Positions 26,704 through 39,267 of a DNA stretch of 64,000 nt are shown one piece after another. The notes beneath the pieces were generated by a model that saw only the letters and a program-made list of their open reading frames with translations, had not been told where the DNA came from and ran no database searches. Source of the stretch: Escherichia phage Gostya9. The stretch is taken from the sequence record NC_047979.1; one strand, 5' to 3'. The translations under genes and the position numbers were made by a program. The stretch's first letter is position 1; every line of letters starts with the position of its first letter.

Positions 26704-26711
26704 GCAATATT

Positions 26712-26788
26712 TGGGGTGGCTAGTGGAATTCGAATCCACATAGGCCTGATTCACAATCAGGATCATTAACCAATTATGATATAGCCAC
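26712..26788 (-). tRNA. tRNA-His (GUG)
   Basis: perfect 7-bp acceptor, T-arm GTGGA-TTCGAAT-TCCAC, anticodon stem CCTGA/TCAGG with loop TTGTGAA. Confidence 0.6.
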
Positions 26789-27011
26789 AATTGAAAACTC
26801 GCAGGGTTAGCGAAACCATCCTCAATTAGCATGTCTAGAATACTAATCAAGTTATCTCCTATTGCATGCAGCTCAAGACGAGTACGAATTTTCAATTGTG
26901 GCGGCTCTCCGAAACTCTTCTATTCTAGTCCCAGAAGCTTACTCCCGAACGCATGTCGGGGAAGTCTTTCCAAGCGCACCAAATAGCACCGTTACACTTT
27001 GAGCCATTATT

Positions 27012-27106
27012 TGGAGGTAGGTAAGGGGATCGAACCCTTACACCGTATCACTACGATCAACCGATTTCAAGTCGGAGTCCAGCGCCAGCCGTTGGATTGA
27101 CCTACC
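27012..27106 (-). tRNA. tRNA-Ser (UGA), type II
   Basis: 95 nt; perfect acceptor GGTAGGT; anticodon loop CTTGAAA; long variable arm. Confidence 0.5.
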
Positions 27107-27118
27107 ATATAAATTGTT

Positions 27119-27209
27119 TGGCGGAAGAGGAGAGATTTGAACTCTCAAGCCGTTTTACCAGTCAGCCACTTTCCAAGCGGTTTTCGTCGCCAATTCGATT
27201 TGCTCTTCC
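27119..27209 (-). tRNA. tRNA-Ser (GGA), type II
   Basis: 91 nt; perfect acceptor GGAAGAG; anticodon loop TTGGAAA; long variable arm. Confidence 0.5.
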
Positions 27210-27321
27210 AATCATAAGATGATGCCTCTATCACGCCAGGCAGTTACGCCTCGCTGGGATTCGAACCCATTAAAACAGCTCAACCGAGATAGTAGGTTTA
27301 ATTTACTCTGACCATCAAATT

Positions 27322-27398
27322 TGGTGCGTGACAAGGGATTCGAACCCTCAAAACCCGACTTCTAGGGACGGTATGTATGCCAATTCCATCAATCACGC
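27322..27398 (-). tRNA. tRNA, anticodon unresolved (loop CCUAGAA)
   Basis: CCA + acceptor GCGTGAT/GTCACGC + T-arm AAGGG-TTCGAAT; anticodon stem has one mismatch. Confidence 0.45.
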
Positions 27399-27406
27399 GT
27401 ATTTTG

Positions 27407-27477
27407 TGGAGAAAGAGGGAGTTGAACCCTCGTCTTCTGCGTGCAAAGCAGATGTTCTACCATTAAACTATATCCCC
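27407..27477 (-). tRNA. tRNA-Ala (UGC)
   Basis: anticodon stem TCTGC/GCAGA with loop TTTGCAC; G3-U70 wobble pair present; CCA not encoded. Confidence 0.55.
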
Positions 27478-27714
27478 AAATTCTTTAGTTTACTAAGGCT
27501 ATTAGCTCGGCGTAACTACAGCACCTTCGCTTCGAGCGGAAGGAACCGCGTCATCTCGCAAACCCGATACACTATTCAGTTGCCGCTGAATCTAGTGGAC
27601 TAATCTAGAACTTCTCCCGAGTCGTAGGATCGTGCTTTTTGGCAGCCAGTCCTAGGTCGAGCTAATACCTTAGTGAACTATGATGAGGATTTCTCCCCAT
27701 CAATTTATATAAAT

Positions 27715-27743
27715 ATTATAACAAGAAATTAAGCATCAAGCAA
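27715..27743 (-). promoter_or_regulatory. sigma70-type promoter heading the tRNA / small-RNA unit
   Basis: TTGCTT-17-TATAAT on minus strand; no protein gene downstream before tRNAs. Confidence 0.6.
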
Positions 27744-27761
27744 ATGAGTTTTTCTTGAAAT

Positions 27762-27837
27762 TGGTAGCGGGTTCCAGTACTGCCCTGGACTTACTTAGCT
27801 TATGAGACTAAGAAGAACTCTATGCCTTCCACCCGCA
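27762..27837 (-). tRNA. tRNA, tentative Met/Ile2 (CAU); atypical T-loop
   Basis: CCA + acceptor; anticodon stem CTTAGT/GCTAAG with loop CTCATAA; T-loop GGCAGTA non-canonical. Confidence 0.4.
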
Positions 27838-27843
27838 ATTATT

Positions 27844-27907
27844 TGGTCAGTGCGGCAGGACTCGAACCTGCGACCCGAATCATCCAGGGATCCCACGCTA
27901 CGCACTG
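27844..27907 (-). tRNA. truncated tRNA-like element (64 nt)
   Basis: perfect 7-bp acceptor CAGTGCG/CGCACTG, CCA and canonical T-arm GCAGG-TTCGAGT-CCTGC, but only 29 nt between them. Confidence 0.3.
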
Positions 27908-28998: not shown

Positions 28999-29205
28999 CT
29001 AAACTCCAGATTCTTCAGCCAAGTCTAGACTAATAAGAGTTATAGCCATAATTGCTGCACCGTGTTCTTTTTCTCCGGTGTTTTTAGCAGAGTCTATAAT
29101 ACCCTTAATCTGTTCGTAATAACTTTTTACTTCTTGTTCAATGCCCGCCTCGGCTATCATGCCTTTAGTCATGAGTCGTTGCATGGTAATTTCACGGTTA
29201 GCCAT
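28999..29205 (-). CDS. hypothetical protein
   Basis: 68-aa ORF; start overlaps stop of an upstream unlisted small ORF. Confidence 0.4.
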   Translation of the reverse strand: MANREITMQRLMTKGMIAEAGIEQEVKSYYEQIKGIIDSAKNTGEKEHGAAIMAITLISLDLAEESGV

Positions 29206-29365
29206 GATGTTTCTCCAGCTTCATTTTTAATAGTTTACAGATGAAATCAACGTCTTCATCCGTGCCTAAGTCTCTATCCCCAAGGGTCGCCTTGAAGTTT
29301 TTCGTTAGTTCCATAAGAATAACTTCCCTAGAACGACGTGTTGGCGGAGGTGGATGTCTATACAT
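29199..29365 (-). CDS. small Pro-rich protein (about 55 aa)
   Basis: ATG after AAGGA RBS; stop overlaps next start (ATGGCTAA); below ORF-track cutoff. Confidence 0.3.
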
Positions 29366-29380
29366 CTTATTTCCTTAATT

Positions 29381-29455
29381 TGGTGGGTCGGAGGAGAATC
29401 TAACTCCTACTCGTTAGCTTATGAGGCCACCGCTTTAACTTTAAGCTACCGACCC
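29381..29455 (-). tRNA. tRNA-Met (CAU) family
   Basis: perfect acceptor GGGTCGG/CCGACCC, T-arm AGGAG-TTAGATT-CTCCT, anticodon loop CTCATAA. Confidence 0.5.
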
Positions 29456-29461
29456 TATGTT

Positions 29462-29550
29462 TGGTGGAAGAAGTGGGAATCGAACCCACAAGGCTATATT
29501 TCAAACCGACAGATTAGCAATCTGCTGCAATACCGTTATGCTATTCTTCC
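29462..29550 (-). tRNA. tRNA-Ser (GCU), type II
   Basis: 89 nt; perfect acceptor GGAAGAA/TTCTTCC; anticodon stem GCAGA/TCTGT with loop TTGCTAA; T-arm GTGGG-TTCGATT-CCCAC. Confidence 0.55.
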
Positions 29551-29565
29551 GAATTTATAAGATAT

Positions 29566-29594
29566 ATTATATTAGAAATTTAGCTTCATAGCAA
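29566..29594 (-). promoter_or_regulatory. sigma70-type promoter driving tRNA-Ser/tRNA-Met
   Basis: TTGCTA-17-TATAAT on minus strand. Confidence 0.6.
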
Positions 29595-30090
29595 GAAAAT
29601 TTTTCAAGTTTTCGGTAGACATCTCATCCACATCTACAGGAGAAACAAACCCATTTAATTGTCTAGCAAATTTTTCACCGGCAGGATCATTATCCCCAAC
29701 AGCTACCAATTTAAAAGGTAGTAATTTCAATTGCTTTAACAACGCTTTTCCGGGGGAAGAACCCAACATTGCTAGGGCAGGATAACCAGCATTATGTAAT
29801 GCTACAGCCTTAAATACAGATTCAGCAATCAATACTACTTTTTCATCCCCACTGAGAGTTTCTAGCCCCCATACACACTGTGCGGTAGAATAAGTAAAAT
29901 ATCTAGCTTCAGAGGGGCACTTACCATGACCTTTTGGAGCAGAAGGATTATAAGTCTGATAGCCTCTCAACATTCCAGAGAAGTCATACAACGGGACTGT
30001 TAGCCATCCTTCCGGACTTAACCAGCAATGATATTTATCTGTATCAAACCCTCTGGATAAGAGATGTTCTGTTAGTTCATCAACAGTCAT
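29572..30090 (-). CDS. hypothetical protein
   Basis: 172-aa ORF. Confidence 0.5.
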   Translation of the reverse strand: MTVDELTEHLLSRGFDTDKYHCWLSPEGWLTVPLYDFSGMLRGYQTYNPSAPKGHGKCPSEARYFTYSTAQCVWGLETLSGDEKVVLIAESVFKAVALHNAGYPALAMLGSSPGKALLKQLKLLPFKLVAVGDNDPAGEKFARQLNGFVSPVDVDEMSTENLKNFLAMKLNF

Positions 30091-30124
30091 ATTAGATTCC
30101 TCTCTCTCTCAAATTTATAAATAT

Positions 30125-30153
30125 ATTATACAGAGAATTTAGCATTCAAGCAA
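30125..30153 (-). promoter_or_regulatory. sigma70-type early promoter
   Basis: TTGCTT-17-TATAAT on minus strand. Confidence 0.65.
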
Positions 30154-30249
30154 TTGAATTTTTAAACTTTTTAGTGGAAAAATCTCAAGGCATTTAATGG
30201 CAGCACGTTGTTGCTGTAATAAGAGTATATGGTTCTAAAGAACCAAATA

Positions 30250-30284
30250 ATAAAGCCCTGCGCTCTCCAGGGAACGCAGGGCTT
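30250..30284 (-). terminator. rho-independent terminator
   Basis: AGCCCTGCG..CGCAGGGCT stem followed on minus strand by TTATTATTTGG; second small hairpin TGGTTC-TAAA-GAACCA adjacent. Confidence 0.55.
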
Positions 30285-30307
30285 ACTTCGAATATTACGT
30301 GTAGGTA

Positions 30308-31258
30308 TTACTTGTTACGCATATCCATAATCATCTGGCCATCGTAACCAGTGCCAACCACAGTCTGAGGTACACCACCTTGATACTTCTGAGCACGAAT
30401 CATTTCAACTTCTAGTTGCTTCCAGCGAATCATCTCAGGAGTAATGGTACGTTGCAGAGCGGCGTTAGCTTCAGCCTCTTTCTTAGCTGCGTACAGTTTA
30501 GCATCTGCATCACGTTCGTTTGCAATAGCTTGGTTGTTACGAGCTTCACGATCTGCTTCTGCTTGTTTAACCTTCTGCTGTGCTTCTTGTTCAACACGAG
30601 CCAACTCAGCTTTCGCAGCATTAACTTGTTCTTCACGAACTTTGGTATTCTGTACCTGTTCCATGATTACAGGCGGCAAAGTAATATCCTGAAGGAACAC
30701 TTGCTTAACTGTGTAACCATAAGGGCGTGCATACTCTTCAACTTCCTGTTGAATTGCAGTTTGTAATTGAGCCTGAATTTTAGCATCAAACAAATCTTGT
30801 GCTTTAGGAACAGACTTGCCGAACTCACGAATAGTGGATAACAGCTTCTCTGTTACGTACTTATCTAGAGCCTGATCCTGAGTACCTGCGTTAATACGGT
30901 TAATCGGTGCCTTAGAACCATCAAACTGCAACATAACAGTCAGATCAACAGTGGATTTAAACTTATCCTGACTAGGAACCTGAAGTTTATCTAATTTTAC
31001 CGCAATGTCTTTTGTACTAAAAGTATCAAAAGATGCAAATGGGTTTACAATATGGAAACCCGGTAATACTGGATTAGGGTCTACTTTACCCAGGAATGTT
31101 TGAGTTTTAACCGTACCATCAGAAACAATAGTATATGAATTAAAAGCTAAAATCAAGCCTGCTAAACCAACTACAGCACCAACTACGATGCGCTTAACAG
31201 CGCGAATGTTCTTTTGTTCGGTGGTCAACGGCTTGTCAGATTTGTTTTTGCTAAACAT
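30308..31258 (-). CDS. SPFH/band-7 (prohibitin-like) membrane protein
   Basis: 316 aa; N-terminal TM, SPFH-like core, Ala/Gln/Glu-rich coiled-coil C-terminus. Confidence 0.6.
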   Translation of the reverse strand: MFSKNKSDKPLTTEQKNIRAVKRIVVGAVVGLAGLILAFNSYTIVSDGTVKTQTFLGKVDPNPVLPGFHIVNPFASFDTFSTKDIAVKLDKLQVPSQDKFKSTVDLTVMLQFDGSKAPINRINAGTQDQALDKYVTEKLLSTIREFGKSVPKAQDLFDAKIQAQLQTAIQQEVEEYARPYGYTVKQVFLQDITLPPVIMEQVQNTKVREEQVNAAKAELARVEQEAQQKVKQAEADREARNNQAIANERDADAKLYAAKKEAEANAALQRTITPEMIRWKQLEVEMIRAQKYQGGVPQTVVGTGYDGQMIMDMRNK

Positions 31259-31294
31259 ATAGTTCCTTTACTTTTGGTTATGATGAATGAAAAT

Positions 31295-31371
31295 TGGTAC
31301 TCCGTAAGGGATTCGAACCCCTAATCAAGAACTTAGAACGATCTTGCCTTATCCAATTTGGCCAACGGAGC
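31295..31371 (-). tRNA. tRNA, anticodon unresolved (possibly Arg UCU)
   Basis: CCA + acceptor GCTCCGT/ACGGAGT + T-arm GGGGTTCGAATCCC + D-arm GCC..GGC; anticodon stem has one mismatch. Confidence 0.5.
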
Positions 31372-31899
31372 ATGAATCTGGGCTTTAATTAGTTCTTCTA
31401 CAAGTGAAGGGTTTAGTTTAAACCATTCTCCTGTGGTGTTGTAGTCTTTAAATGTTCTATGCACTAGGTTCTCTACTGAATAAGCATCTTCACAGAAGAA
31501 CCATCTGAGTATACTGAAGGATTTTTCCGGTGAGAAACAATTTGCTTCTTCTAACCTGCGAGCAGGTTCTATGGACTTACCTACTTTTATAAACTCAGGG
31601 CATTTGGAATCTTGCATTATGTAGACAAAACCTTCCCTAGACCTTAACTTGCTAACCACCGTACAATCACGATATTTTAATAGGTTGATAGCTGCTAGTC
31701 TGAAATATTGTCGCAGTAAACTTTTTTGTTTACTTGGTCTTAGTTTTGAGAATGCTAGTTTATCTTCTATTTTTAGTAAAGCCACTTGATTTACTAAACT
31801 GTAAGTAATTTTGAACCATTCATTACATTTAGGGATCAGCCCTAAATTAATGGCTTTGGTTATTTGTCCTATGTCATAGGAGTTATCTCTCATATACAT
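31333..31899 (-). CDS. T5orf172-domain / GIY-YIG-like protein
   Basis: 188 aa; GFVYIM..FIKVGKS..P..R..E pattern typical of the T5orf172 family as recalled; 3' end overlaps the tRNA, so the exact stop needs checking. Confidence 0.5.
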   Translation of the reverse strand: MYMRDNSYDIGQITKAINLGLIPKCNEWFKITYSLVNQVALLKIEDKLAFSKLRPSKQKSLLRQYFRLAAINLLKYRDCTVVSKLRSREGFVYIMQDSKCPEFIKVGKSIEPARRLEEANCFSPEKSFSILRWFFCEDAYSVENLVHRTFKDYNTTGEWFKLNPSLVEELIKAQIHAPLAKLDKARSF

Positions 31900-32408
31900 A
31901 TTCCTGTGTCGATATTTTTAAGAACTCTCGTAAAAACTCTTAAAAATACAGACGATACCGGGAGAGTCATAAGTCTCACTCATTAAGTATTTCAAGACAA
32001 AATACAGTAACGTCTATTATTTTCCAGTTTAAGTCAAGGTGACTTAGTGGTTATGCCCTGCGGTATACTGGGGACTCGGTTAGGTTAGGGTCATGACTTC
32101 CTACCTTTTTGCTGCTACTCAACAGGAGTTATCGCGAATTACCTGTGCTATTGTGCACCATTAGTGGCATCTCTCATGCCAGCATTTCCCACTTTGTGGA
32201 TAGTTTGAAAAACTACTCCGATATGGAGGGAGAACTTCACTATCCTAGAATACCTTCTAAAGTTCTTCTTTAGCCTGGACATAGTTAAATCGTAATAAAA
32301 CTATTCAGCAGACTGGTTGGTTAGCCTGGAACCAACTACCGCGTGGTTTAGGCAGTGCGCAACTAACCTCGGAAGCTTTTACGTTAAAAGCACCAGTTAT
32401 CCAGTTCT

Positions 32409-32480
32409 TACCGATCGTAGGATTCGAACCTACATCTTCCACCAGTTACGGCTTGATAATACCGTTTATACTAGATCGGC
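32409..32480 (-). tRNA. tRNA, anticodon unresolved
   Basis: acceptor GCCGATC/GATCGGT, T-arm GTAGG-TTCGAAT-CCTAC; CCA not encoded. Confidence 0.45.
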
Positions 32481-32556
32481 AGTGTTACTACATAAGTGAT
32501 TTCCACACCCCACTATTTATAACTTAGAGAAGAATTACTCTCTAATTTATGAATAT

Positions 32557-32585
32557 ATTATACAGAATTTATAAGCATTTAGCAA
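32557..32585 (-). promoter_or_regulatory. sigma70-type promoter upstream of isolated tRNA
   Basis: TTGCTA-17-TATAAT on minus strand. Confidence 0.6.
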
Positions 32586-33036
32586 ATGAATTTTTAGAAA
32601 ACTCGCTAGCAATCAAGGCGGCTGTTTTACCATCATAACGCCCTGGAAATTCTGCCTTAATAGTTTTCATTAAGAGAGCTTTGGTAATGCCTGGGTTTAG
32701 TTTAACTAATTCTGCAAAGTATTTACGAATTTCAGTATCAGATAACTGAGGAGGCAGATACTCCTGCAACCACTTATTTAGAATGTATTCATACTGAGCG
32801 GACTGCAAGCTATAACTATCAAGATCTTGACCATGAAGTTTAGCTTTCATTTGGTTAATGCTTTTTAGTTGAGCTTTGAGATAAGACACAAATTGTTCAG
32901 AAGTGATGAAATCTTTATCAATACGCTGAAGATCCCCGATTATGGTCTGGTAGCTTTTAGCGACTTCTTTATCAGAACCATTAAACTTAGAATCCTGCAA
33001 AGCTCTACGCAAAACAGCTAAAATATTCTCTTCCAT
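32569..33036 (-). CDS. hypothetical protein
   Basis: 155-aa ORF. Confidence 0.45.
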   Translation of the reverse strand: MEENILAVLRRALQDSKFNGSDKEVAKSYQTIIGDLQRIDKDFITSEQFVSYLKAQLKSINQMKAKLHGQDLDSYSLQSAQYEYILNKWLQEYLPPQLSDTEIRKYFAELVKLNPGITKALLMKTIKAEFPGRYDGKTAALIASEFSKNSFAKCL

Positions 33037-33206
33037 TATTTCATCCCCAATGCTTGGTTGAAAGATTGTTCTGTCATAACTGCTGAGACTTTGGCGAAAT
33101 CAAACTTTTTAGGGTTCGTAGTGATCTCAGCAACGTTGGAAGTTTTAACAGTTTTCGTAGTACGAATACCGCGAGTGTTAACACCAATGACGACCAAGTT
33201 TTTCAT
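33036..33206 (-). CDS. small protein (56 aa)
   Basis: ATG after GAGG RBS; stop overlaps next start (TAATG); below ORF-track cutoff. Confidence 0.35.
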   Translation of the reverse strand: MKNLVVIGVNTRGIRTTKTVKTSNVAEITTNPKKFDFAKVSAVMTEQSFNQALGMK

Positions 33207-33237
33207 ATTTCGCTTCCTCTCATTAATTTATGAAAGT

Positions 33238-33266
33238 ATTATACAGAAGTTTAAGTATTTAAGCAA
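33238..33266 (-). promoter_or_regulatory. sigma70-type early promoter
   Basis: TTGCTT-17-TATAAT on minus strand. Confidence 0.65.
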
Positions 33267-33281
33267 ATAAATTTTTAAGTT

Positions 33282-33749
33282 TTAAGTTTTAGTGACAGCA
33301 GGCTTATAAAATGTATGCCCCTTAATCTTAGTTGTTTTCTTAAACTTCTTTGTCCAGTACGGTTTATCTTTACCACTATGGAAGTATAAGGCTCCATGTG
33401 TAGGATCTTGTGGTAAATCAACGTAGTATATCACTCTAGCTAAATTCTTGGCGGTTTGCCAAGCCTCATCGGTTTTATCAACTTTTGGTCTCTTAGATAC
33501 CCAAGAGAACTGGTTAGACTGATATACTACTTTACAGTAGGAATCTGGGAATTTACCGGAGTTTACACGGTTTTTAGTAACATGTGCAATCGCCGTCATT
33601 CCCTTTATGCCCTCACCACGACTTTCGAAATAGATATTTTTAGCAATGCAATCTATTTCTTTTGCATCGTGCGATGCCTGACTACTAAAGCTGAAGGTAA
33701 GGGCAGCTACTAAAAGCAAAGCTGCCTTCATTCTTTTTACTCCTGCCAA
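33282..33749 (-). CDS. secreted cell-wall hydrolase (SleB-like Hydrolase_2 family)
   Basis: 155 aa; signal peptide; AKNIYFESRGE..AIAHVTKNRV..YCKVVYQSNQFSW pattern. Confidence 0.6.
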   Translation of the reverse strand: MAGVKRMKAALLLVAALTFSFSSQASHDAKEIDCIAKNIYFESRGEGIKGMTAIAHVTKNRVNSGKFPDSYCKVVYQSNQFSWVSKRPKVDKTDEAWQTAKNLARVIYYVDLPQDPTHGALYFHSGKDKPYWTKKFKKTTKIKGHTFYKPAVTKT

Positions 33750-34054
33750 TCGTATTCAATACGATTGGGGTTTTCTTTGTATCCCAAGTCAAGCAAATCA
33801 TTACGCATAGTTTGCTTAGCTACGGGATTCGAGGTTACTAGTACCACTTTCTTTGGTCTCTGCCCAAATTCTAAGAGTAAACGAAGAATTTGATAACCTT
33901 CCATACCATCTACAGCCAAATCGTTGTCGAAATAAACAAAATGGCCAGTGGTATCAGTCTTATTCAGAAACTCAACAGCGGCTTCTGGGGTTCGAATGAT
34001 AATGTCCATTCCGTGAAGATTACGCACATCATCAATCAAAATATGAAAAGTCAT
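33737..34054 (-). CDS. hypothetical protein
   Basis: 105-aa ORF. Confidence 0.45.
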   Translation of the reverse strand: MTFHILIDDVRNLHGMDIIIRTPEAAVEFLNKTDTTGHFVYFDNDLAVDGMEGYQILRLLLEFGQRPKKVVLVTSNPVAKQTMRNDLLDLGYKENPNRIEYDWQE

Positions 34055-34083
34055 AATAGCCTCGTTTCACCAATTTAAAATAT

Positions 34084-34112
34084 ATTATACAGAAAACTTA
34101 ATAAATTAGCAA
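34084..34112 (-). promoter_or_regulatory. sigma70-type early promoter
   Basis: TTGCTA-17-TATAAT on minus strand. Confidence 0.65.
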
Positions 34113-34495
34113 ATACATTTTTAAATTGTGAAACTAGTAAACCGATAAACAGCCTAGGGGCGCCACAGGCCATATCTTATGAGCCATGTACCTTTGATCT
34201 AGGGTTTGAATCATCAACGAATACTTTGCATCTTTTAGCTTTAGAAGTTTAGAAGTTTGAGTTCTTTAAACTTTTCAGCTTTCATACTTAAATGTTGATC
34301 TTTGAAGTTGTGTCGGTAATATCAACGACGCTTTGTTTTTACGTGTCAGATTAAATGTCTGATGTAATAAACATAATCTCCAATAGATTATACTTTATAG
34401 TATGGTCAGCGGTCTTATTTAACCTCGTATTTCAACCGCTGCTGCGAGGTAAGATGCTTGGGCTTTCGTCTACCGATTTACTAGCTTTTAAATTA

Positions 34496-35134
34496 TTACT
34501 CTACTTCAATGAAAGTAGAGGCATTGGACTCAGACAGAACAAAGTCAACATTAGTTGCAAAGTCCTGGTATTCTTCGTCGTGCTGCTTGATCAGCTTTTC
34601 CAGCTCCAGCGGATCAATCAAGAATGGGGTATTCTTGAGTTCCAACAGGTTGAGCTGCATTTTAACTTCATCTTCGGAAGTTTTCTTATCGCGGGTAGCC
34701 ATGCTATCCTGCAAACGCTCATATTTAGCATCAAACTGTGCTTTCTGCGTATTAAACTTAACCGTAGCGGCATGGAACTGCTTACGCATATTAGCCAGCA
34801 ACTGAGCTTTAAGTTCCATAGAACGTTTAGCTTCAATTGCTTCTGCAACAGTCATTTTACGAGAACCAATCTCAACGATTGTTTCCGCATTGCTCTTAAT
34901 CAATGCTGCTTTGATACGATCACGTTGGGACAGCATATCTAGTAGGGATTGGAAATCTGTCTTAATACGATTAGACAGATCTTCTACTTCGATTGCGGCA
35001 CCAACTACAACCTGGTTTTTATCCTTACCTTCACCAACAGCGATCAGAAGCTGTTGTTCAGTAGCTTTACGGATTTTAGCTTCCAGAGATTTGATGGTTG
35101 CCAGAGCACGAGTTTTAGAGATACGAGTGGTCAC
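34496..35134 (-). CDS. coiled-coil protein
   Basis: 212-aa ORF; preferred over overlapping plus-strand ORF 34355..34942 because of strand context. Confidence 0.45.
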   Translation of the reverse strand: MTTRISKTRALATIKSLEAKIRKATEQQLLIAVGEGKDKNQVVVGAAIEVEDLSNRIKTDFQSLLDMLSQRDRIKAALIKSNAETIVEIGSRKMTVAEAIEAKRSMELKAQLLANMRKQFHAATVKFNTQKAQFDAKYERLQDSMATRDKKTSEDEVKMQLNLLELKNTPFLIDPLELEKLIKQHDEEYQDFATNVDFVLSESNASTFIEVE

Positions 35135-35186
35135 TGTTTCTTCCTTACATGAAGTTTAAGGTTTGAATTTGTTTAAAGTTGGTCTA

Positions 35187-35369
35187 TTACAGACCCATTG
35201 CCAGTAAGGTACGCAGAACAGTATCTTTACTATTATCAATTTTAGGATTAGCACGATTTAGCAGATCAAAGATTTTCTGGACACCTGATTGACGTTCAGC
35301 CATACGACGGATACCCAGATTACGAGTAGCTTTCTTACCATTTTTACGAACATTTTTAGATACTGGCAT
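35187..35369 (-). CDS. small basic protein
   Basis: 60-aa ORF downstream of promoter 35411-35439. Confidence 0.4.
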   Translation of the reverse strand: MPVSKNVRKNGKKATRNLGIRRMAERQSGVQKIFDLLNRANPKIDNSKDTVLRTLLAMGL

Positions 35370-35410
35370 ATTTGTTTTCCTTTTATTGTTTTCTCAAATT
35401 TATGAAATAT

Positions 35411-35439
35411 ATTATACAGAATTTTGGAGCCGGAAGCAA
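35411..35439 (-). promoter_or_regulatory. sigma70-type early promoter
   Basis: TTGCTT-17-TATAAT on minus strand. Confidence 0.65.
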
Positions 35440-35440
35440 A

Positions 35441-36142
35441 TCAAATTTTCATTTTTTCGATCATAGCTGCAACACAATAGCTCTCAACTAAGGCATCGAA
35501 TGCTGGGTCGTGCTTAACCGGATATATCCCGTAACGAATGGTGTCCATCTTCTCCATTTTAGCTATTGCCCAGCTAATACCTTCGGTCTCTAGAGCCTTA
35601 TAACTGTATCCAGCTTGCATCCAGAGATTACGAAGGGATCGAACATTACCCAAATTCCAGAATTTCCACGGAACTATTTCTTCATTGGTTCCAGCATGGA
35701 AAGTGTTTGCAGAGTAGATAGTCATATCAAACTCTGGGCCATTGCCATAATACAAAGCATTTTCGCCTAGAGCCAATTCCATAATGTTTTTAGCCATAGA
35801 ATAAGCTGCATAGTTAGAGCCGAGCTTATTAGTACAGTGATGTTTACCATCTTGAAAAGCAATCAGCTTTGGATTACGCTCGTTCATAGCTTCCATAATG
35901 TGGAAAGCAGACGGACTATTTTTAGCTTGATCCATCCAGAATGCTAGAGTAGATGCTGTAACTTTGGCACCAGAATTAAGCTGATCCTGCACATCCAAAG
36001 TAACAAACACTAGATCAGGGTCTTTATCAATTCCGTGCATAGCCACAAAAGCGAAAGAAGGCATTACGATATGAGTAGTACCACAATCTCCCGGAGTTCC
36101 TAGAGATTCAATATCTAACATACCAAATGGTTTTACTTTCAT
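35441..36142 (-). CDS. DEDDh-type 3'-5' exonuclease-like protein
   Basis: 233 aa; MLDIESLG (Exo I-like D-x-E) and HDPAFDA (Exo III-like) motifs. Confidence 0.5.
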   Translation of the reverse strand: MKVKPFGMLDIESLGTPGDCGTTHIVMPSFAFVAMHGIDKDPDLVFVTLDVQDQLNSGAKVTASTLAFWMDQAKNSPSAFHIMEAMNERNPKLIAFQDGKHHCTNKLGSNYAAYSMAKNIMELALGENALYYGNGPEFDMTIYSANTFHAGTNEEIVPWKFWNLGNVRSLRNLWMQAGYSYKALETEGISWAIAKMEKMDTIRYGIYPVKHDPAFDALVESYCVAAMIEKMKI

Positions 36143-36170
36143 AACTTATCCTTTATTGTGTAGAAAACTA

Positions 36171-36407
36171 TTAAAGAGCTGTCTCTTTAATAGACTCCCA
36201 CTTCTTGGGGTCTTTAAAACCAGGAAGCATATCTTCACTAACATCCCAGTTTTCTTCCGTAGAAAAGTCTGGCCATTCATTCCAACTATCTTCCAGCTCT
36301 TCATACCAGGTATCCATTACCTCATGACTAGAAAGTCGTGTATAATCTCTAGCGGATTTATGAGTGCTAGCACGGTTAAAATCATTCTTTGCTACAAAAT
36401 TACGCAT
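36171..36407 (-). CDS. small acidic protein
   Basis: 78-aa ORF. Confidence 0.4.
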   Translation of the reverse strand: MRNFVAKNDFNRASTHKSARDYTRLSSHEVMDTWYEELEDSWNEWPDFSTEENWDVSEDMLPGFKDPKKWESIKETAL

Positions 36408-36420
36408 AGTTTCTCCAAAA

Positions 36421-36442
36421 ATATGAGGGGCTTTCGCCCCTC
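36421..36442 (-). terminator. rho-independent terminator
   Basis: GAGGGGC-TTTC-GCCCCTC hairpin followed on minus strand by ATATTTTTGG. Confidence 0.55.
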
Positions 36443-36449
36443 TTATCTA

Positions 36450-36965
36450 TTACTTCGCTTTACGTTTACGAGCTGGTTTAGCGGATTTACGAGCAGAATC
36501 ACCCGTAAATTTAATACCCACACCATAGCATAGAGCACGAACGTTATCTTTGCTATATTCTACGCCGAAGATATTTGGCTTAACAGAACCAAACTGGCCA
36601 CGAGTATCACGCAGTACATCTGCCGTTGGTTTACGCTTCTGGTTAACTGCTTTCTCATAGTCTTTCATGGCCATGCCATTACGAGGGAACAACTCAGCTC
36701 CAGCATTGAAACTCAGTGTTACTGGAACAGATTTGTGACCGTAACCCTGTACATAGGTTACGAGGCGGACTACAGAACGAGTAGCATTCTTAGCCTTCGG
36801 CTTTTGACGAATCGGAGCCGGACGATTCAGTGCCTGTGCAGCTTGAGCATCAGTAGGATGCTTGCGCAGGTGGCGTTCCAGACGAGCTTTGCGGTTAGCC
36901 TCAGTCTGTGGGAAAGTTTTAACTGCCGGAGCTGCTTGAGTTTTTGCGTTTTTCTGCTTAGCCAT
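36450..36965 (-). CDS. basic hypothetical protein
   Basis: 171-aa ORF, Lys/Arg-rich. Confidence 0.5.
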   Translation of the reverse strand: MAKQKNAKTQAAPAVKTFPQTEANRKARLERHLRKHPTDAQAAQALNRPAPIRQKPKAKNATRSVVRLVTYVQGYGHKSVPVTLSFNAGAELFPRNGMAMKDYEKAVNQKRKPTADVLRDTRGQFGSVKPNIFGVEYSKDNVRALCYGVGIKFTGDSARKSAKPARKRKAK

Positions 36966-37003
36966 TATTTGTTTTCCTTTTTGTTTATCAATTTATGAAG
37001 TAT

Positions 37004-37032
37004 ATTATACGAGAATTTGAAGCGTTTAGCAA
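37004..37032 (-). promoter_or_regulatory. sigma70-type early promoter
   Basis: TTGCTA-17-TATAAT on minus strand. Confidence 0.65.
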
Positions 37033-37048
37033 ATGAATTTTTTAAAAA

Positions 37049-37327
37049 TTATCTGCCAACCATCTTAGCTTGTTCGGCATCTGAGACATATTGATACGCT
37101 CCTTTATTATACGCTGGAGCAGTACACATTTTCTTACGCTCAATCTCTTCTTGAGCTTTTCTTTCGCGTTCAGCTAATTCTTCATCCAGATAAACTAAAC
37201 GTTGTTCTGGAGGAGGTGGAAGACGTGTTTCTGGCTCCCCAATATTAGCCTTTCTTATTTGACGAGGTGATTGTACACGTTTTCTCAACGGTTTAAATCC
37301 TAATGAATTTGAGTTATAAATTCGCAT
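37049..37327 (-). CDS. hypothetical protein
   Basis: 92-aa ORF. Confidence 0.45.
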   Translation of the reverse strand: MRIYNSNSLGFKPLRKRVQSPRQIRKANIGEPETRLPPPPEQRLVYLDEELAERERKAQEEIERKKMCTAPAYNKGAYQYVSDAEQAKMVGR

Positions 37328-37354
37328 AAAGCCCTCCTCACTTTCAATACGAAT

Positions 37355-37383
37355 ATTATACTAAATTAGAGGGCTTTAAGCAA
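37355..37383 (-). promoter_or_regulatory. sigma70-type early promoter flanked by 9-bp inverted repeat
   Basis: TTGCTT-17-TATAAT; AAAGCCCTC / GAGGGCTTT flank the element. Confidence 0.6.
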
Positions 37384-37403
37384 CTGAATTTTTAAATTAT
37401 TTA

Positions 37404-37880
37404 TTACATCTCCGCAAGTTCTTGCTCAGTAATAACTGTGTTACACAGTGCATCTACAGCTTCATTACCACTAATACCAGAATGTCCTTTAACCTTAATA
37501 AAGGTAGGATTAGTATTATGAAAGTTGATATACTGCTGTGTTAATTTAAATGCTTCCTGCCACAGCTCTAGGTTAAGAGGAACTTCACCATCTGCTTTCT
37601 TCCAGCCTTTCCTTTGCCAAGAGAACATCCAGCTTTCCATGCCATTTTTGCAATAAGCAGAGTCAGTATAGATAACACTTGGTCTATTATCCTTTTTAAC
37701 GGACCAACGTAGAGCTTCTACAATAGCCGTGAGTTCCATCTCATTATTTGTAGTTTTAGGATTATAACCAGATTTAGAGCCTAAACGATCGTCATTATCA
37801 TCATAGACAATAAAACCCCAAGCACCCGGGCCAGGGTTGGACTTACAAGCACCATCTGTGTAAATGTGGAAAACCGACAT
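37404..37880 (-). CDS. rnhA: ribonuclease HI
   Basis: 158 aa; YTDGAC..NPGPG..NNEMEL..YTDS..GHSG..NE.VD motifs of RNase H. Confidence 0.8.
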   Translation of the reverse strand: MSVFHIYTDGACKSNPGPGAWGFIVYDDNDDRLGSKSGYNPKTTNNEMELTAIVEALRWSVKKDNRPSVIYTDSAYCKNGMESWMFSWQRKGWKKADGEVPLNLELWQEAFKLTQQYINFHNTNPTFIKVKGHSGISGNEAVDALCNTVITEQELAEM

Positions 37881-37882
37881 TA

Positions 37883-38392
37883 TTATTCCCCTTCGTAGGT
37901 ATCTTCAGGCCAATGTGATGGTTCACTATCTGCTGGTTTATACATTCTAGGTAGTGCTAATAGTGAGAGAAAAGCTGGCTCACTAAAGTAGTGAGTATAT
38001 TCTTTAAACTCTGAGAACCACTCAGTTACCTCTTGAATATCCTCTTCACAAGGTGAGAGAGTTTCTATGGAACAGGTTGCACCCCTCTTAGGTTTGGTTT
38101 TATAATAGTCATCTAGTACTCTTTGAACCTTCTGTGCTGTTTCCTCAGCAGTTAAAGATTCATCACACTCTATACTATCTATCTCCTCTGCTAGATAGTC
38201 CGGCCATTCCTCTCCCTGACCTACTCCATCATAACGAATGACTGGCTGGCAGTCCTCATCACTATTTAGTGCATGTAGTTCCATATAATGGAACGTTTGG
38301 GCTATTACATCTAGCAGCAACTTTAGTTGCTCTTTTGAGGCTGTCCCTTCTTTGTACTTAATATAGGCATTAGCTACTTTTGGATTAATCAT
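37883..38392 (-). CDS. hypothetical acidic protein
   Basis: 169-aa ORF. Confidence 0.45.
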   Translation of the reverse strand: MINPKVANAYIKYKEGTASKEQLKLLLDVIAQTFHYMELHALNSDEDCQPVIRYDGVGQGEEWPDYLAEEIDSIECDESLTAEETAQKVQRVLDDYYKTKPKRGATCSIETLSPCEEDIQEVTEWFSEFKEYTHYFSEPAFLSLLALPRMYKPADSEPSHWPEDTYEGE

Positions 38393-38426
38393 ATTCGTAT
38401 TTATCCTTTGTTTATTAATTGAGTAT

Positions 38427-38455
38427 ATTATATTTAAATTTCACTAAATAAGCAA
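38427..38455 (-). promoter_or_regulatory. sigma70-type early promoter
   Basis: TTGCTT-17-TATAAT on minus strand. Confidence 0.65.
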
Positions 38456-38493
38456 ATGAAATTTAAGTATAATAGCCCCGAAGGCTATTTAAA

Positions 38494-39267
38494 TTATACA
38501 AACTCATACGCCGGGAACTTAGGTGAACGAACTCTATTACCTATAGTCGCTGTGGAACACCCCAATGCTCTAGCTGCTGCACTCATACTAACGTATTCCA
38601 CACCATCCACACGTACTGCCTTAAAGTGAGTAGGAATGGGTGTCTTTCCCTCTCTAATACTTTCTTGGTACTGCTTAGAAGCCTGAGACATCTTGCTCAG
38701 AGCCTCTTCAGTGTGCTTCTTCCCATAAAAGGAGTTATTCTCACCTGTTCGATCCCTACAACTATTACAGTACTCCCCATTAGTGTTATTAAGGGCTAGT
38801 AGGGAACCACAATCAATACATGTTTTTGAGCGAGTAGATACTCCTCCCTTCCAGTTATAGTTTAGCTCGCCTGGTCTACTCCACCGGGCTTTTCTTTCTT
38901 CTTTAGATAAGGACGCTATATGCTTTCTAACACTCTCACTAATTCTCTTAATAATCTCCTCTCTTCGAGGATTATTTGTGAGATTATCCCCGCCACCGTA
39001 GCTACCTATGTTGAACTCTGCTCCCAGCTCCTTAGCCCACTCTTCTTCTAGTAAGAACTGCTGATCTACTTCTTCAGTAGTATCTAAGATGTCAAATACA
39101 AAGTCTTGCTTTCCGGTTTTATCATAAGCTCTCTGTAGAAAAGCGTTATGGTGGTTCCCCTTACTTAGTGAGTAAAAATGTTTACGCTTTCTAGCCTCAA
39201 TATCCTTAGTCGATCCAACGTACTGTCTTCCCGTAGATAGCTGAGTTATACTATAGATGTAAATCAT
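38494..39267 (-). CDS. GIY-YIG homing endonuclease with NUMOD-like repeats and C-terminal HTH
   Basis: 257 aa; N-terminal IYIYSITQLSTGRQYVGST..R..H (GIY-YIG), repeated N..GG..NSFYGKKHTEE modules, C-terminal HTH; start overlaps thyA stop. Confidence 0.7.
   Translation of the reverse strand: MIYIYSITQLSTGRQYVGSTKDIEARKRKHFYSLSKGNHHNAFLQRAYDKTGKQDFVFDILDTTEEVDQQFLLEEEWAKELGAEFNIGSYGGGDNLTNNPRREEIIKRISESVRKHIASLSKEERKARWSRPGELNYNWKGGVSTRSKTCIDCGSLLALNNTNGEYCNSCRDRTGENNSFYGKKHTEEALSKMSQASKQYQESIREGKTPIPTHFKAVRVDGVEYVSMSAAARALGCSTATIGNRVRSPKFPAYEFV

Follow-up and report, generated by a model that had tools for sequence, protein, structure and literature searches.

A double-pseudoknot RNA predicted at the head of the early tRNA unit of Escherichia phage Gostya9, probable ortholog of T5 RNA2H

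A question raised by the transfer RNA (tRNA) region of Escherichia phage Gostya9 (sequence record NC_047979.1), a T5-like phage of the family Demerecviridae, is what is made from positions 27478-27714, the segment between an early promoter and the first tRNA gene downstream of it. Coordinates throughout are those of the window, the whole stretch of 64,000 nucleotides (nt) that was analysed. ARAGORN and Rfam found 12 tRNA genes in the window, all on the minus strand; the segment is therefore read on the minus strand, the strand of the RNA described here. A preliminary description of this DNA had offered a small stable RNA or a processing leader as candidates for its product. The comparisons presented below indicate that the segment is almost certainly the ortholog of T5 RNA2H, a structured non-coding RNA of ~170-190 nt that heads the early tRNA unit, and that this RNA very probably folds as a compact double pseudoknot made of a 22-base-pair (bp) closing helix, P2 to P7 and two pseudoknots. 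The explanation that best accounts for the data as a whole, to which we assign a probability of roughly 0.6, is that of an RNA2H ortholog that would be excised as a stable RNA and would act in trans as an accessory factor rather than serve as a spacer.

Identity and transcription of the segment

A blastn search with the segment matched 426 of 50,697 phage records, nearly all of them from Salmonella and Escherichia T5-like phages. The homologous stretch of T5 (AY543070, 31808-31979, 172 nt) is annotated as the misc_RNA rna2H, "RNA2H, stable RNA with unknown functions", and the window is 96.7% identical to the T5 rna2H region by blastn over 238 nt comprising promoter, RNA and trailer. Gene order is the same in both phages: promoter P13b, rna2H, tRNA-Ala and tRNA-Leu follow each other on one strand, and window positions 27762-27361 align with positions 2457-2857 of the T5 locus (L001) across the promoter, the RNA and both tRNAs. 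The aligned cores are identical apart from a few bases; the window differs from T5 by the loss of one base in the P4 hairpin (CCC to CC), seen in no other homolog, and by the DNA upstream of the promoter, where the T5 block containing RNA2, RNA IV, P13a and the tRNAs for Pro, fMet, Lys and Val is missing. Since the homologous stretch is already annotated in T5, the feature is not new as an observation. The T5 record gives neither structure nor function for rna2H, and no account of RNA2H or of the T5 stable RNAs was found in the literature searched. A reading of "2H" as "RNA2 homolog" was rejected, T5 RNA2 being tRNA-like and unrelated in sequence.

The small-RNA proposal of the preliminary description is thus supported by the T5 annotation, which that description had not seen, just as it had not seen the long closing helix and the two pseudoknots set out below. 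Its statements that the segment holds no cloverleaf that could be folded and no open reading frame (ORF) beyond 10 codons are in line with our results. Neither ARAGORN nor the Rfam tRNA model (RF00005) detects a tRNA within 27478-27714, the nearest one being tRNA-Ala at 27477-27406, and no ORF of at least 20 amino acids (aa) lies on the transcribed strand inside the segment. A plus-strand ORF at 27328-27603 (91 aa) was discarded as spurious; it runs antisense across two tRNA genes. The indels and compensatory substitutions seen in homologs fit an RNA rather than a coding sequence, and the segment, folded as a single sequence, is much more stable than shuffled sequence (z = -5.2). An Rfam scan and a conservation survey of T5-like genomes, both proposed in the preliminary description, were carried out. 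The first, covering the window and seven homologous loci including that of phage DU_PP_V, returned no credible Rfam 15 match to the RNA at the gathering score or at E <= 10. Near the segment, the E <= 10 output for the window consists of two small nucleolar RNA (snoRNA) models at chance level, which touch the promoter and leader; a weak match to the same snoRNA model is found at this place in homologous loci L003 and L004 as well, and DU_PP_V gives one weak plus-strand match to RNAI. The second revealed strong conservation that preserves structure. Neither of the outcomes that the preliminary description had named as fatal to its proposal was encountered, there being no ordinary tRNA here and the transcript being called stable in the T5 record.

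Several GenBank records (hits H4, H8, H30, H42, H44-H46, H48, H49 and H52) carry a "hypothetical protein" over the RNA2H homolog; one such record says "putative tail protein", and in at least two the call sits on the opposite strand. These calls look like spurious genes placed over a structured RNA.

The promoter placed at 27715-27743 in the preliminary description, and said there to fire into the segment ahead of the tRNAs, is correct to the base and is the homolog of T5 P13b. Read directly on the minus strand, it consists of a -35 element TTGCTT (27743-27738), a spacer of 17 nt and a -10 element TATAAT (27720-27715). ATTT follows directly 3' of the -10 element, so that an ATATT discriminator motif spans 27716-27712; ATATT in the discriminator is common to all known T5 early promoters (Klimuk et al. 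2020, PMC7472727). A generic sigma-70 scanner gave no call at 27743-27715, because TTGCTT agrees with TTGACA at just 3 of 6 positions. Transcription is expected to start at about 27708-27706, and no terminator-like site was found in 27400-27750.

A promoter of the P13b type is kept in T5, Epseptimavirus, KKP_3711, Sugarlandvirus and Eos. The leader hairpin that lies just past the expected start in the window has a counterpart of different sequence in the same place in KKP_3711 and DU_PP_V, and is missing from the Klebsiella phages and Eos, in which P1 follows directly on the -10 box and RNA2H therefore begins the transcript. RNA2H may also stand at the start of the transcript in the Proteus and Providencia phages, upstream of whose RNA2H there is only a guessed, weak -10 element and no -35 element was found. 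Two metagenome contigs (L132 and L136) have UUUC as the tetraloop of the leader hairpin, GAAA being found in most, on the same stem, as if the palindrome had been flipped.

Comparative structure and range of the family

The structure was derived from an alignment of 32 distinct sequences belonging to 8 lineages, among them T5/Epseptimavirus, KKP_3711, Sugarlandvirus, Eos, DU_PP_V, the Priunavirus PSTCR5 and the Novosibvirus Proteus phage 1, with homologs drawn from annotated phage records, IMG/VR and metagenomes. Two very divergent relatives were reached via the phage deoxynucleoside monophosphate (dNMP) kinase gene, which led to Providencia phage PSTCR5 and, through PSTCR5, to Proteus phage 1; the SPFH protein, tried as a marker for the same purpose, proved useless, being shared with T4-like phages. 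A plain MAFFT alignment was discarded, as between lineages it shifted the 3' strands of P5 and P6 by one column. The sequences were therefore cut at sequence anchors into fixed segments, padded with N and then aligned, and the aligner was confirmed to have kept the register.

In this alignment, 98.0% of the 1,737 cells of the proposed structure are standard pairs, changes on both sides are found in 41 of 55 pairs, and every helix covaries. The covariation score is 0.425, compared with 0.157 in shuffles, none of 500 of which reached the observed value; when the 3' partners were slid by 1-3 columns as a control, pairing fell to 30-45% and compensatory pairs to 4-10. P2 and the long 3' arm P7 branch inside the closing helix P1 (Table 1). 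A junction strand leads from P2 to P3, which encloses P4, P5 and P6, and the junction strand pairs with the loop of P5 (PK1) and next with the loop of P6 (PK2) before an A-rich linker runs into P3. It is this arrangement of two pseudoknots inside a covarying closing helix that, judged from the sequence comparison, we regard as very probably correct.

Compensatory changes occur in 12 of the 22 pairs of P1 (P1a and P1b, 12 + 10 bp), and a C.A mismatch at column 5 in P1a is confined to the T5 type. The partners in P1b are AAUUAGUCUG/CGGAUUAAUU in KKP_3711, UAUAACCUAG/CUAGGUUAUA in DU_PP_V and UAUAUGUAUA/UAUACAUAUA in PSTCR5, while the bulged G at column 146 is the same in 32 of 32 rows from the 8 lineages and the flanking UAARG/CYUUA is the most conserved paired block. 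PK1 is the most telling element of the predicted structure: 4 of its 5 pairs are compensatory with 100% pairing, its strands being GGACU/AGUCC, GAACC/GGUUC, GAGCC/GGCUC, GAGUC/GACUC or GAACU/GGUUC depending on the lineage, and a U.G intermediate occurs in one Klebsiella phage. The partners observed in PK2 are UGCC/GGCA, UACC/GGUA and AAUC/GAUU. P3 is GCAC/GUGU in six lineages, AAGA/UCUU in PSTCR5 and UGUG/CAUA in Proteus phage 1, so that 4 of 4 pairs are compensatory once these two phages are included; the junction lengths do not differ in PSTCR5 and barely do so in Proteus phage 1. P5 is likewise paired in 100% of cases with 4 of 5 pairs compensatory. Although the helices are fully changed across lineages, some unpaired bases never vary: four As of the linker, G34, U75, A100, A113 and the bulged G.

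The stem-loops singled out in the preliminary description, GCGG-AAGGAA-CCGC and the elements centred on CCTAGG, did not survive as conserved pairings. GCGGU pairs instead with GCUGU inside P7, while CCUAGG comprises the 5' strand of P2 and part of PK1 and is not palindromic in other lineages.

Table 1. Positions of the RNA2H elements and of the adjoining features on the minus strand of the window
Feature	Position	Strand	Basis or remark
RNA2H gene with the whole closing helix P1, 193 nt	27487..27679	-	blastn, structure counts
P1a, 5' strand AGUUCACUAAGG, partner 27498-27487	27668..27679	-	comparative alignment
P1a, 3' strand CCUUAGUAAACU	27487..27498	-	comparative alignment
P1b, 5' strand UAUUAGCUCG, partner 27509-27500	27658..27667	-	comparative alignment
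P1b, 3' strand CGAGCUAAUA	27500..27509	-	comparative alignment
Invariant bulged G, 3' strand between P1b and P1a, putative RNase III cleavage region	27499	-	column 146
P2, 5' strand ACCU, partner GGGU 27565-27562	27654..27657	-	4/4 pairs compensatory, 100% paired
P2, 3' strand GGGU	27562..27565	-	comparative alignment
PK1, 5' strand GGACU in the P2-P3 junction, partner AGUCC 27601-27597	27648..27652	-	comparative alignment
PK1, 3' strand AGUCC in the P5 loop	27597..27601	-	comparative alignment
PK2, 5' strand UGCC, partner GGCA 27584-27581	27641..27644	-	3/4 pairs compensatory, 95% paired
PK2, 3' strand GGCA in the P6 loop	27581..27584	-	comparative alignment
A-rich linker AAAAA, PK2 to P3	27636..27640	-	columns 41, 42, 44 and 45 invariant (4/5 positions)
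P3, 5' strand GCAC, partner GUGU 27572-27569	27632..27635	-	comparative alignment
P3, 3' strand GUGU	27569..27572	-	comparative alignment
Variable hairpin P4 (UCC 27629-27627 / GGA 27617-27615) with junction GAAGU	27610..27631	-	3/3 basal pairs compensatory
Hairpin P5, UCUAG 27609-27605 / CUAGA 27595-27591, loop AUUAGUCCA with PK1	27591..27609	-	comparative alignment
Hairpin P6, UUCAG 27590-27586 / CUGAA 27579-27575, loop CGGCAA with PK2	27575..27590	-	5/5 pairs compensatory
Long 3' arm P7, form A	27510..27559	-	RNAalifold
Predicted mature RNA, 171 nt	27497..27667	-	annotated T5 ends (L001 2549-2720) transferred
T5 early-type sigma-70 promoter, P13b homolog	27715..27743	-	sequence read, T5 annotation, ATATT rule
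5' leader hairpin GAUGGGGA-GAAA-UCCUCAUC, outside the RNA2H core, just past the transcription start	27682..27701	-	minimum free energy fold
9-nt trailer AAAGAAUUU between P1 and the tRNA-Ala 5' end	27478..27486	-	sequence, ARAGORN
tRNA-Ala (UGC), first gene downstream, same transcription unit	27406..27477	-	ARAGORN; Rfam tRNA model, 72.3 bits

The peripheral arms behave differently from the core. P4 carries inserts of 17-25 nt in the Epseptimavirus, Klebsiella and KKP_3711 versions. P7 occurs in two mutually unrelated forms, whose distribution among the loci compared (L002-L008 and L123-L127) does not follow the rest of the molecule: form A (20 pairs by RNAalifold, 4 of them compensatory) is common to the window, T5, UTK0009 and Eos, while form B (13 pairs, 4 compensatory), with the loop UGGCUAAU, is found in the other lineages. 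UTK0009 combines a P4 insert of the Epseptimavirus type with a P7 of the T5 type, and Eos has the T5-type P7 even though form B is found in KKP_3711 and the Klebsiella phages, its nearest relatives. This distribution looks like modular exchange of a peripheral arm. The form-B loop UGGCUAAU (L002, L004, L007, L008 and L123-L128) also repeats GCUAAU, which is the 3' strand of P1b in T5-type RNAs, so that pairing with the 5' strand of P1b, as an alternative to P1b or between molecules, may be possible; the repeat is absent from the form-A arm of the window.

The family ranges over at least 8 Demerecviridae lineages that infect Escherichia, Salmonella, Klebsiella, Enterobacter, Pectobacterium, Providencia and Proteus, and as far as searched it is found only in T5-like phages, with hosts in the Enterobacterales and Morganellaceae. 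A blastn search of 5,426 complete E. coli genomes did not detect it. In two exact-pattern scans, 185,579 species-representative bacterial genomes yielded no match and then two chance matches, while four pattern scans of IMG/VR and one of metagenomes gave, besides chance matches, only members from T5-like phages, Sugarlandvirus and DU_PP_V; the loosest pattern scan added nothing further among the matches listed. Chance matches were removed with nhmmer, and it is nhmmer and the patterns together that delimit the family. In T5, Epseptimavirus, Sugarlandvirus and Eos, RNA2H comes first behind the early promoter, with tRNA-Ala as its immediate downstream neighbour. An ORF, and not directly a tRNA, follows it in KKP_3711, fuchur, PSTCR5 and Proteus phage 1, and in poul149 and JNwz02 it has no promoter of its own and is not promoter-proximal. 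The presence of RNA2H does not depend on a tRNA as the next gene, nor in every case on a promoter of its own.

The Providencia and Proteus phages also have, just upstream of RNA2H, an unannotated GC-rich stretch (L249 11930-12030 and L251 330-400) with CCGACGCCUUAAGUGGC in common, possibly a further conserved RNA.

Excision and function

When the ends annotated in T5 are transferred to the window, they flank the bulged G: the 5' end is the U with which P1b begins, and the 3' end lies two paired bases past the bulge. The 2-bp stagger plus the bulged G would leave a 3-nt 3' overhang, not the canonical 2. A duplex formed by the flanks of a mature RNA would have to reach ~20 bp or more to serve as an RNase III substrate, and the covarying P1 offers 22 bp, a size that RNase III recognises. 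We propose that host RNA polymerase starts at the T5 early-type promoter and transcribes the leader hairpin (27701-27682) and then RNA2H; that a staggered double-strand cut of the RNase III type at the bulged G of P1 would free the RNA from its precursor; that RNase P, cutting at the 5' end of tRNA-Ala (27477) as expected from general tRNA processing, would free the 3' side; and that the 171-nt product (27667-27497) would accumulate as a stable RNA. On the evidence of the sequences, excision by RNase III and RNase P has about an even chance of being correct. RNAs with long closing helices that are excised by RNase III include the precursors of 16S and 23S ribosomal RNA (rRNA) and the T7 early RNA sites. 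They resemble RNA2H in that the flanks form a duplex of about two turns with an irregularity at the cut; they differ in that cleavage of RNA2H is predicted and its overhang would be 3 nt.

For the excised RNA we tentatively favor a trans-acting accessory role, in which the conserved core would bind a host or phage macromolecule and the RNA would serve as a factor in host takeover or anti-defence. RNA2H is not merely a cleavage site, because P1 alone would suffice for that, yet the pseudoknotted core and the unpaired bases stay fixed. Two viable T5 mutants have been described, with deletions of 29191-32442 and 30661-38625 (PMC11464382), whose coordinates agree with AY543070; both remove RNA2H, which is therefore dispensable in the laboratory. 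The region of ~8 kb lost in T5n and SP15m has been termed an "anti-defense island" and contains tRNA-Tyr, Rad and other counter-defence genes (Azam et al., bioRxiv 10.1101/2023.03.15.532788); we equate it here with the T5Mos deletion, which covers RNA2H, the paper giving no coordinates.

Several points weigh against the explanation of RNA2H as an excised, trans-acting stable RNA, or against the structure on which it builds. The alignment was registered by hand to the proposed structure, which favors that structure; only about 8 lineages are independent, and close T5/Epseptimavirus variants make up 23 of the 32 rows. Pairing discriminates weakly between strands (98.0% for the proposed strand, 95.4% for its complement): the pair counts favor the strand only slightly, and the main grounds for the orientation are the promoter, the tRNAs and the T5 annotation. 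The transcript, its ends and its stability are taken from the GenBank note, and the RNase III step rests on the transferred annotation with its 3-nt overhang; the annotation of T5 RNA IV, too, ends inside a closing helix, at a mismatch, and with a different overhang. Finally, no result of the analysis points to a binding partner of RNA2H, and the phenotypes seen in defence-system screens of the 8-kb deletion mutants are explained by tRNA-Tyr, Rad and ORF71/72 (ORF72/73 in the legend) rather than by RNA2H (bioRxiv 10.1101/2023.03.15.532788).

The alternative that survives best, though we consider it rather doubtful, is that RNA2H acts only in cis as a processing or stability leader, P1 providing an entry site for RNase III or protecting the 5' end and the excised piece being a by-product. 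This would suit the position directly between the early promoter and tRNA-Ala in T5, Epseptimavirus, Sugarlandvirus and Eos, the high conservation of UAARG/CYUUA around the bulged G and the viability of T5 mutants without RNA2H. It would not account for the two pseudoknots, P2, P3, P5, P6 and the unpaired nucleotides, all kept across eight lineages despite turnover of the helices, nor for the lineages with an ORF as the next gene (KKP_3711, fuchur, PSTCR5 and Proteus phage 1) or in which RNA2H is not promoter-proximal (poul149 and JNwz02), and T5 annotates rna2H as a stable product.

An unlikely possibility is that RNA2H is a self-assembling RNA-only particle or a tRNA-associated scaffold, a small counterpart of GOLLD (RF02032) and ROOL. 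These phage RNAs are, as is RNA2H, pseudoknotted, located in or next to a phage tRNA island and without an assigned function, and ROOL is abundant and non-essential (PMC12286853). The variable or swapped arms P4 and P7 around a fixed core could fit a particle, and a case of apparent replacement comes from the Vibrio T5-like phage 70E35.6 (MW824424.1), also a member of the Demerecviridae. The search method that gave no GOLLD match on RNA2H at E <= 10 in the window and seven homologous loci identified GOLLD in this phage with the model of its conserved 3' domain (L250, 12657-13077; 176.4 bits against a gathering score of 150) inside the tRNA cluster, just upstream of tRNA-Ile, and a descriptor search found no RNA2H in the 40.6 kb around that cluster. 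This suggests that different structured RNAs may fill one role in these tRNA clusters. However, a common niche does not prove a common mechanism. RNA2H has no detectable homology to GOLLD or ROOL, by sequence or by covariance model; at ~170-190 nt it is one quarter to one third of their size (~580-800+ nt); they form homo-oligomeric cages, whereas oligomerisation of RNA2H would be conjecture; and no self-complementary or palindromic loop that is conserved was detected, UCGA in the loop of P7 form A being variable among close relatives.

A cis-regulator of the riboswitch type, responding to a metabolite or tRNA and thereby governing read-through into the tRNA genes, would have the compact pseudoknotted fold, the invariant unpaired nucleotides, the promoter-proximal position in most lineages and the downstream genes in the same orientation that are seen here. 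We nevertheless judge it very improbable: no terminator-like hairpin or U-run that could act as an expression platform was found between P1 and tRNA-Ala, a downstream tRNA offers no ribosome-binding site for sequestering, no Rfam riboswitch family matches, the downstream gene varies by lineage, and the T5 record speaks of a stable RNA. Double-pseudoknot cores are typical of several small self-cleaving ribozymes, and the ends annotated for T5 fall within the transcript, neither at its start nor at a terminator; both points would suit a ribozyme that releases itself from the tRNA precursor. Such a ribozyme is hardly credible, as no ribozyme family matches at E <= 10, two cuts on opposite strands of one helix suit a duplex-specific nuclease better, and the 3' side is already explained by RNase P. 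That there is no RNA gene here at all, only a decayed tRNA such as the degenerate tRNA-like pieces nearby (27847-27907 and 27763-27837) or a small protein gene of the kind that several GenBank records place over the homologous stretch, can practically be dismissed, given the results of the tRNA and ORF searches, the compensatory nature of the helix substitutions and the 17-25 nt indels tolerated in P4, not all of them multiples of three.

Neighbouring features and other RNAs of phage tRNA clusters

Further features of the surrounding tRNA region were noted, all on the minus strand. Homologs of T5 RNA I and RNA III, which like RNA2H are stable RNAs without an assigned function and without an Rfam family, lie at 26709-27008 and are 97.7% identical to T5 (L001 4025-4325); T5 RNA1, which precedes them in T5, is absent from the window. 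Two long-arm tRNAs, tRNA-Ser(GGA) at 27123-27209 and tRNA-Ser(UGA) at 27016-27106, were missed by ARAGORN and by the Rfam gathering scan; their T5 counterparts in the alignment are tRNA-Ser2 and tRNA-Ser1, and the tRNA-Sec model gives them only 19.7 and 38.3 bits. Between tRNA-Leu and tRNA-Ser2, T5 has the HNH endonuclease gene hegC; it is missing from the window at 27212-27321, where a remnant resembles the 3' half of a tRNA (GGUUCGAAUCCCAGCGAGGCG). At 27762-27902, a T5 block of 1.1 kb (RNA2, RNA IV, P13a, T5.066, tRNA-Pro, tRNA-fMet, T5.065, tRNA-Lys and tRNA-Val) is replaced by ~140 nt with two tRNA-like pieces: the one at 27847-27907 is without a D arm and scores 33.4 bits, and the one at 27763-27837, with a CAU anticodon-like loop and an odd T arm, was detected by neither tool. 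An SPFH/Band 7 gene at 30308-31258 has relatives of ~83% identity in T4-like phages of Klebsiella, Citrobacter and Enterobacter and of ~64% identity in Aeromonas phages, which suggests that it has been exchanged between unrelated phage families.

Extra stable RNAs without an explained purpose have long been known in phage tRNA clusters, from T4 species 1 and 2 and T5 RNA I, III, IV and 2H to, later, GOLLD and ROOL. T4 species 1 and 2 (rnaC and rnaD) are small stable RNAs of the T4 tRNA cluster that are co-transcribed with the tRNAs and processed by the host, and RNase III has been reported to take part in the processing of T4 tRNA precursors. RNA2H resembles them, by analogy only, as a small stable RNA among phage tRNAs; they have been described as partly tRNA-like, and RNA2H shows no tRNA-like arm.

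The fold of RNA2H, the range of its family and its absence from Rfam appear not to be on record, as judged from Rfam 15 and the literature searched. In hundreds of phage genomes, annotation based on Rfam misses RNA2H or leaves a hypothetical protein in its place, and the present analysis turns a bare GenBank note into a testable object with ends, a fold supported by covariation, invariant unpaired bases and a phylogenetic range. In the T5 tRNA region, tRNA-Lys counters PARIS, and tRNA-Tyr and Rad counter retrons; as this region is an anti-defence island, its unexplained RNAs are obvious candidates for counter-defence or host takeover. It is conceivable, though we hold it to be quite doubtful, that RNA2H is the first representative of a class of compact double-pseudoknot RNAs, as yet uncurated, which belongs to the same guild as GOLLD, ROOL and the T4 stable RNAs. 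If so, the RNAs of this guild would act on or alongside the translation and tRNA machinery, for example as decoys or shields against tRNA-targeting immunity or as scaffolds for tRNA handling.

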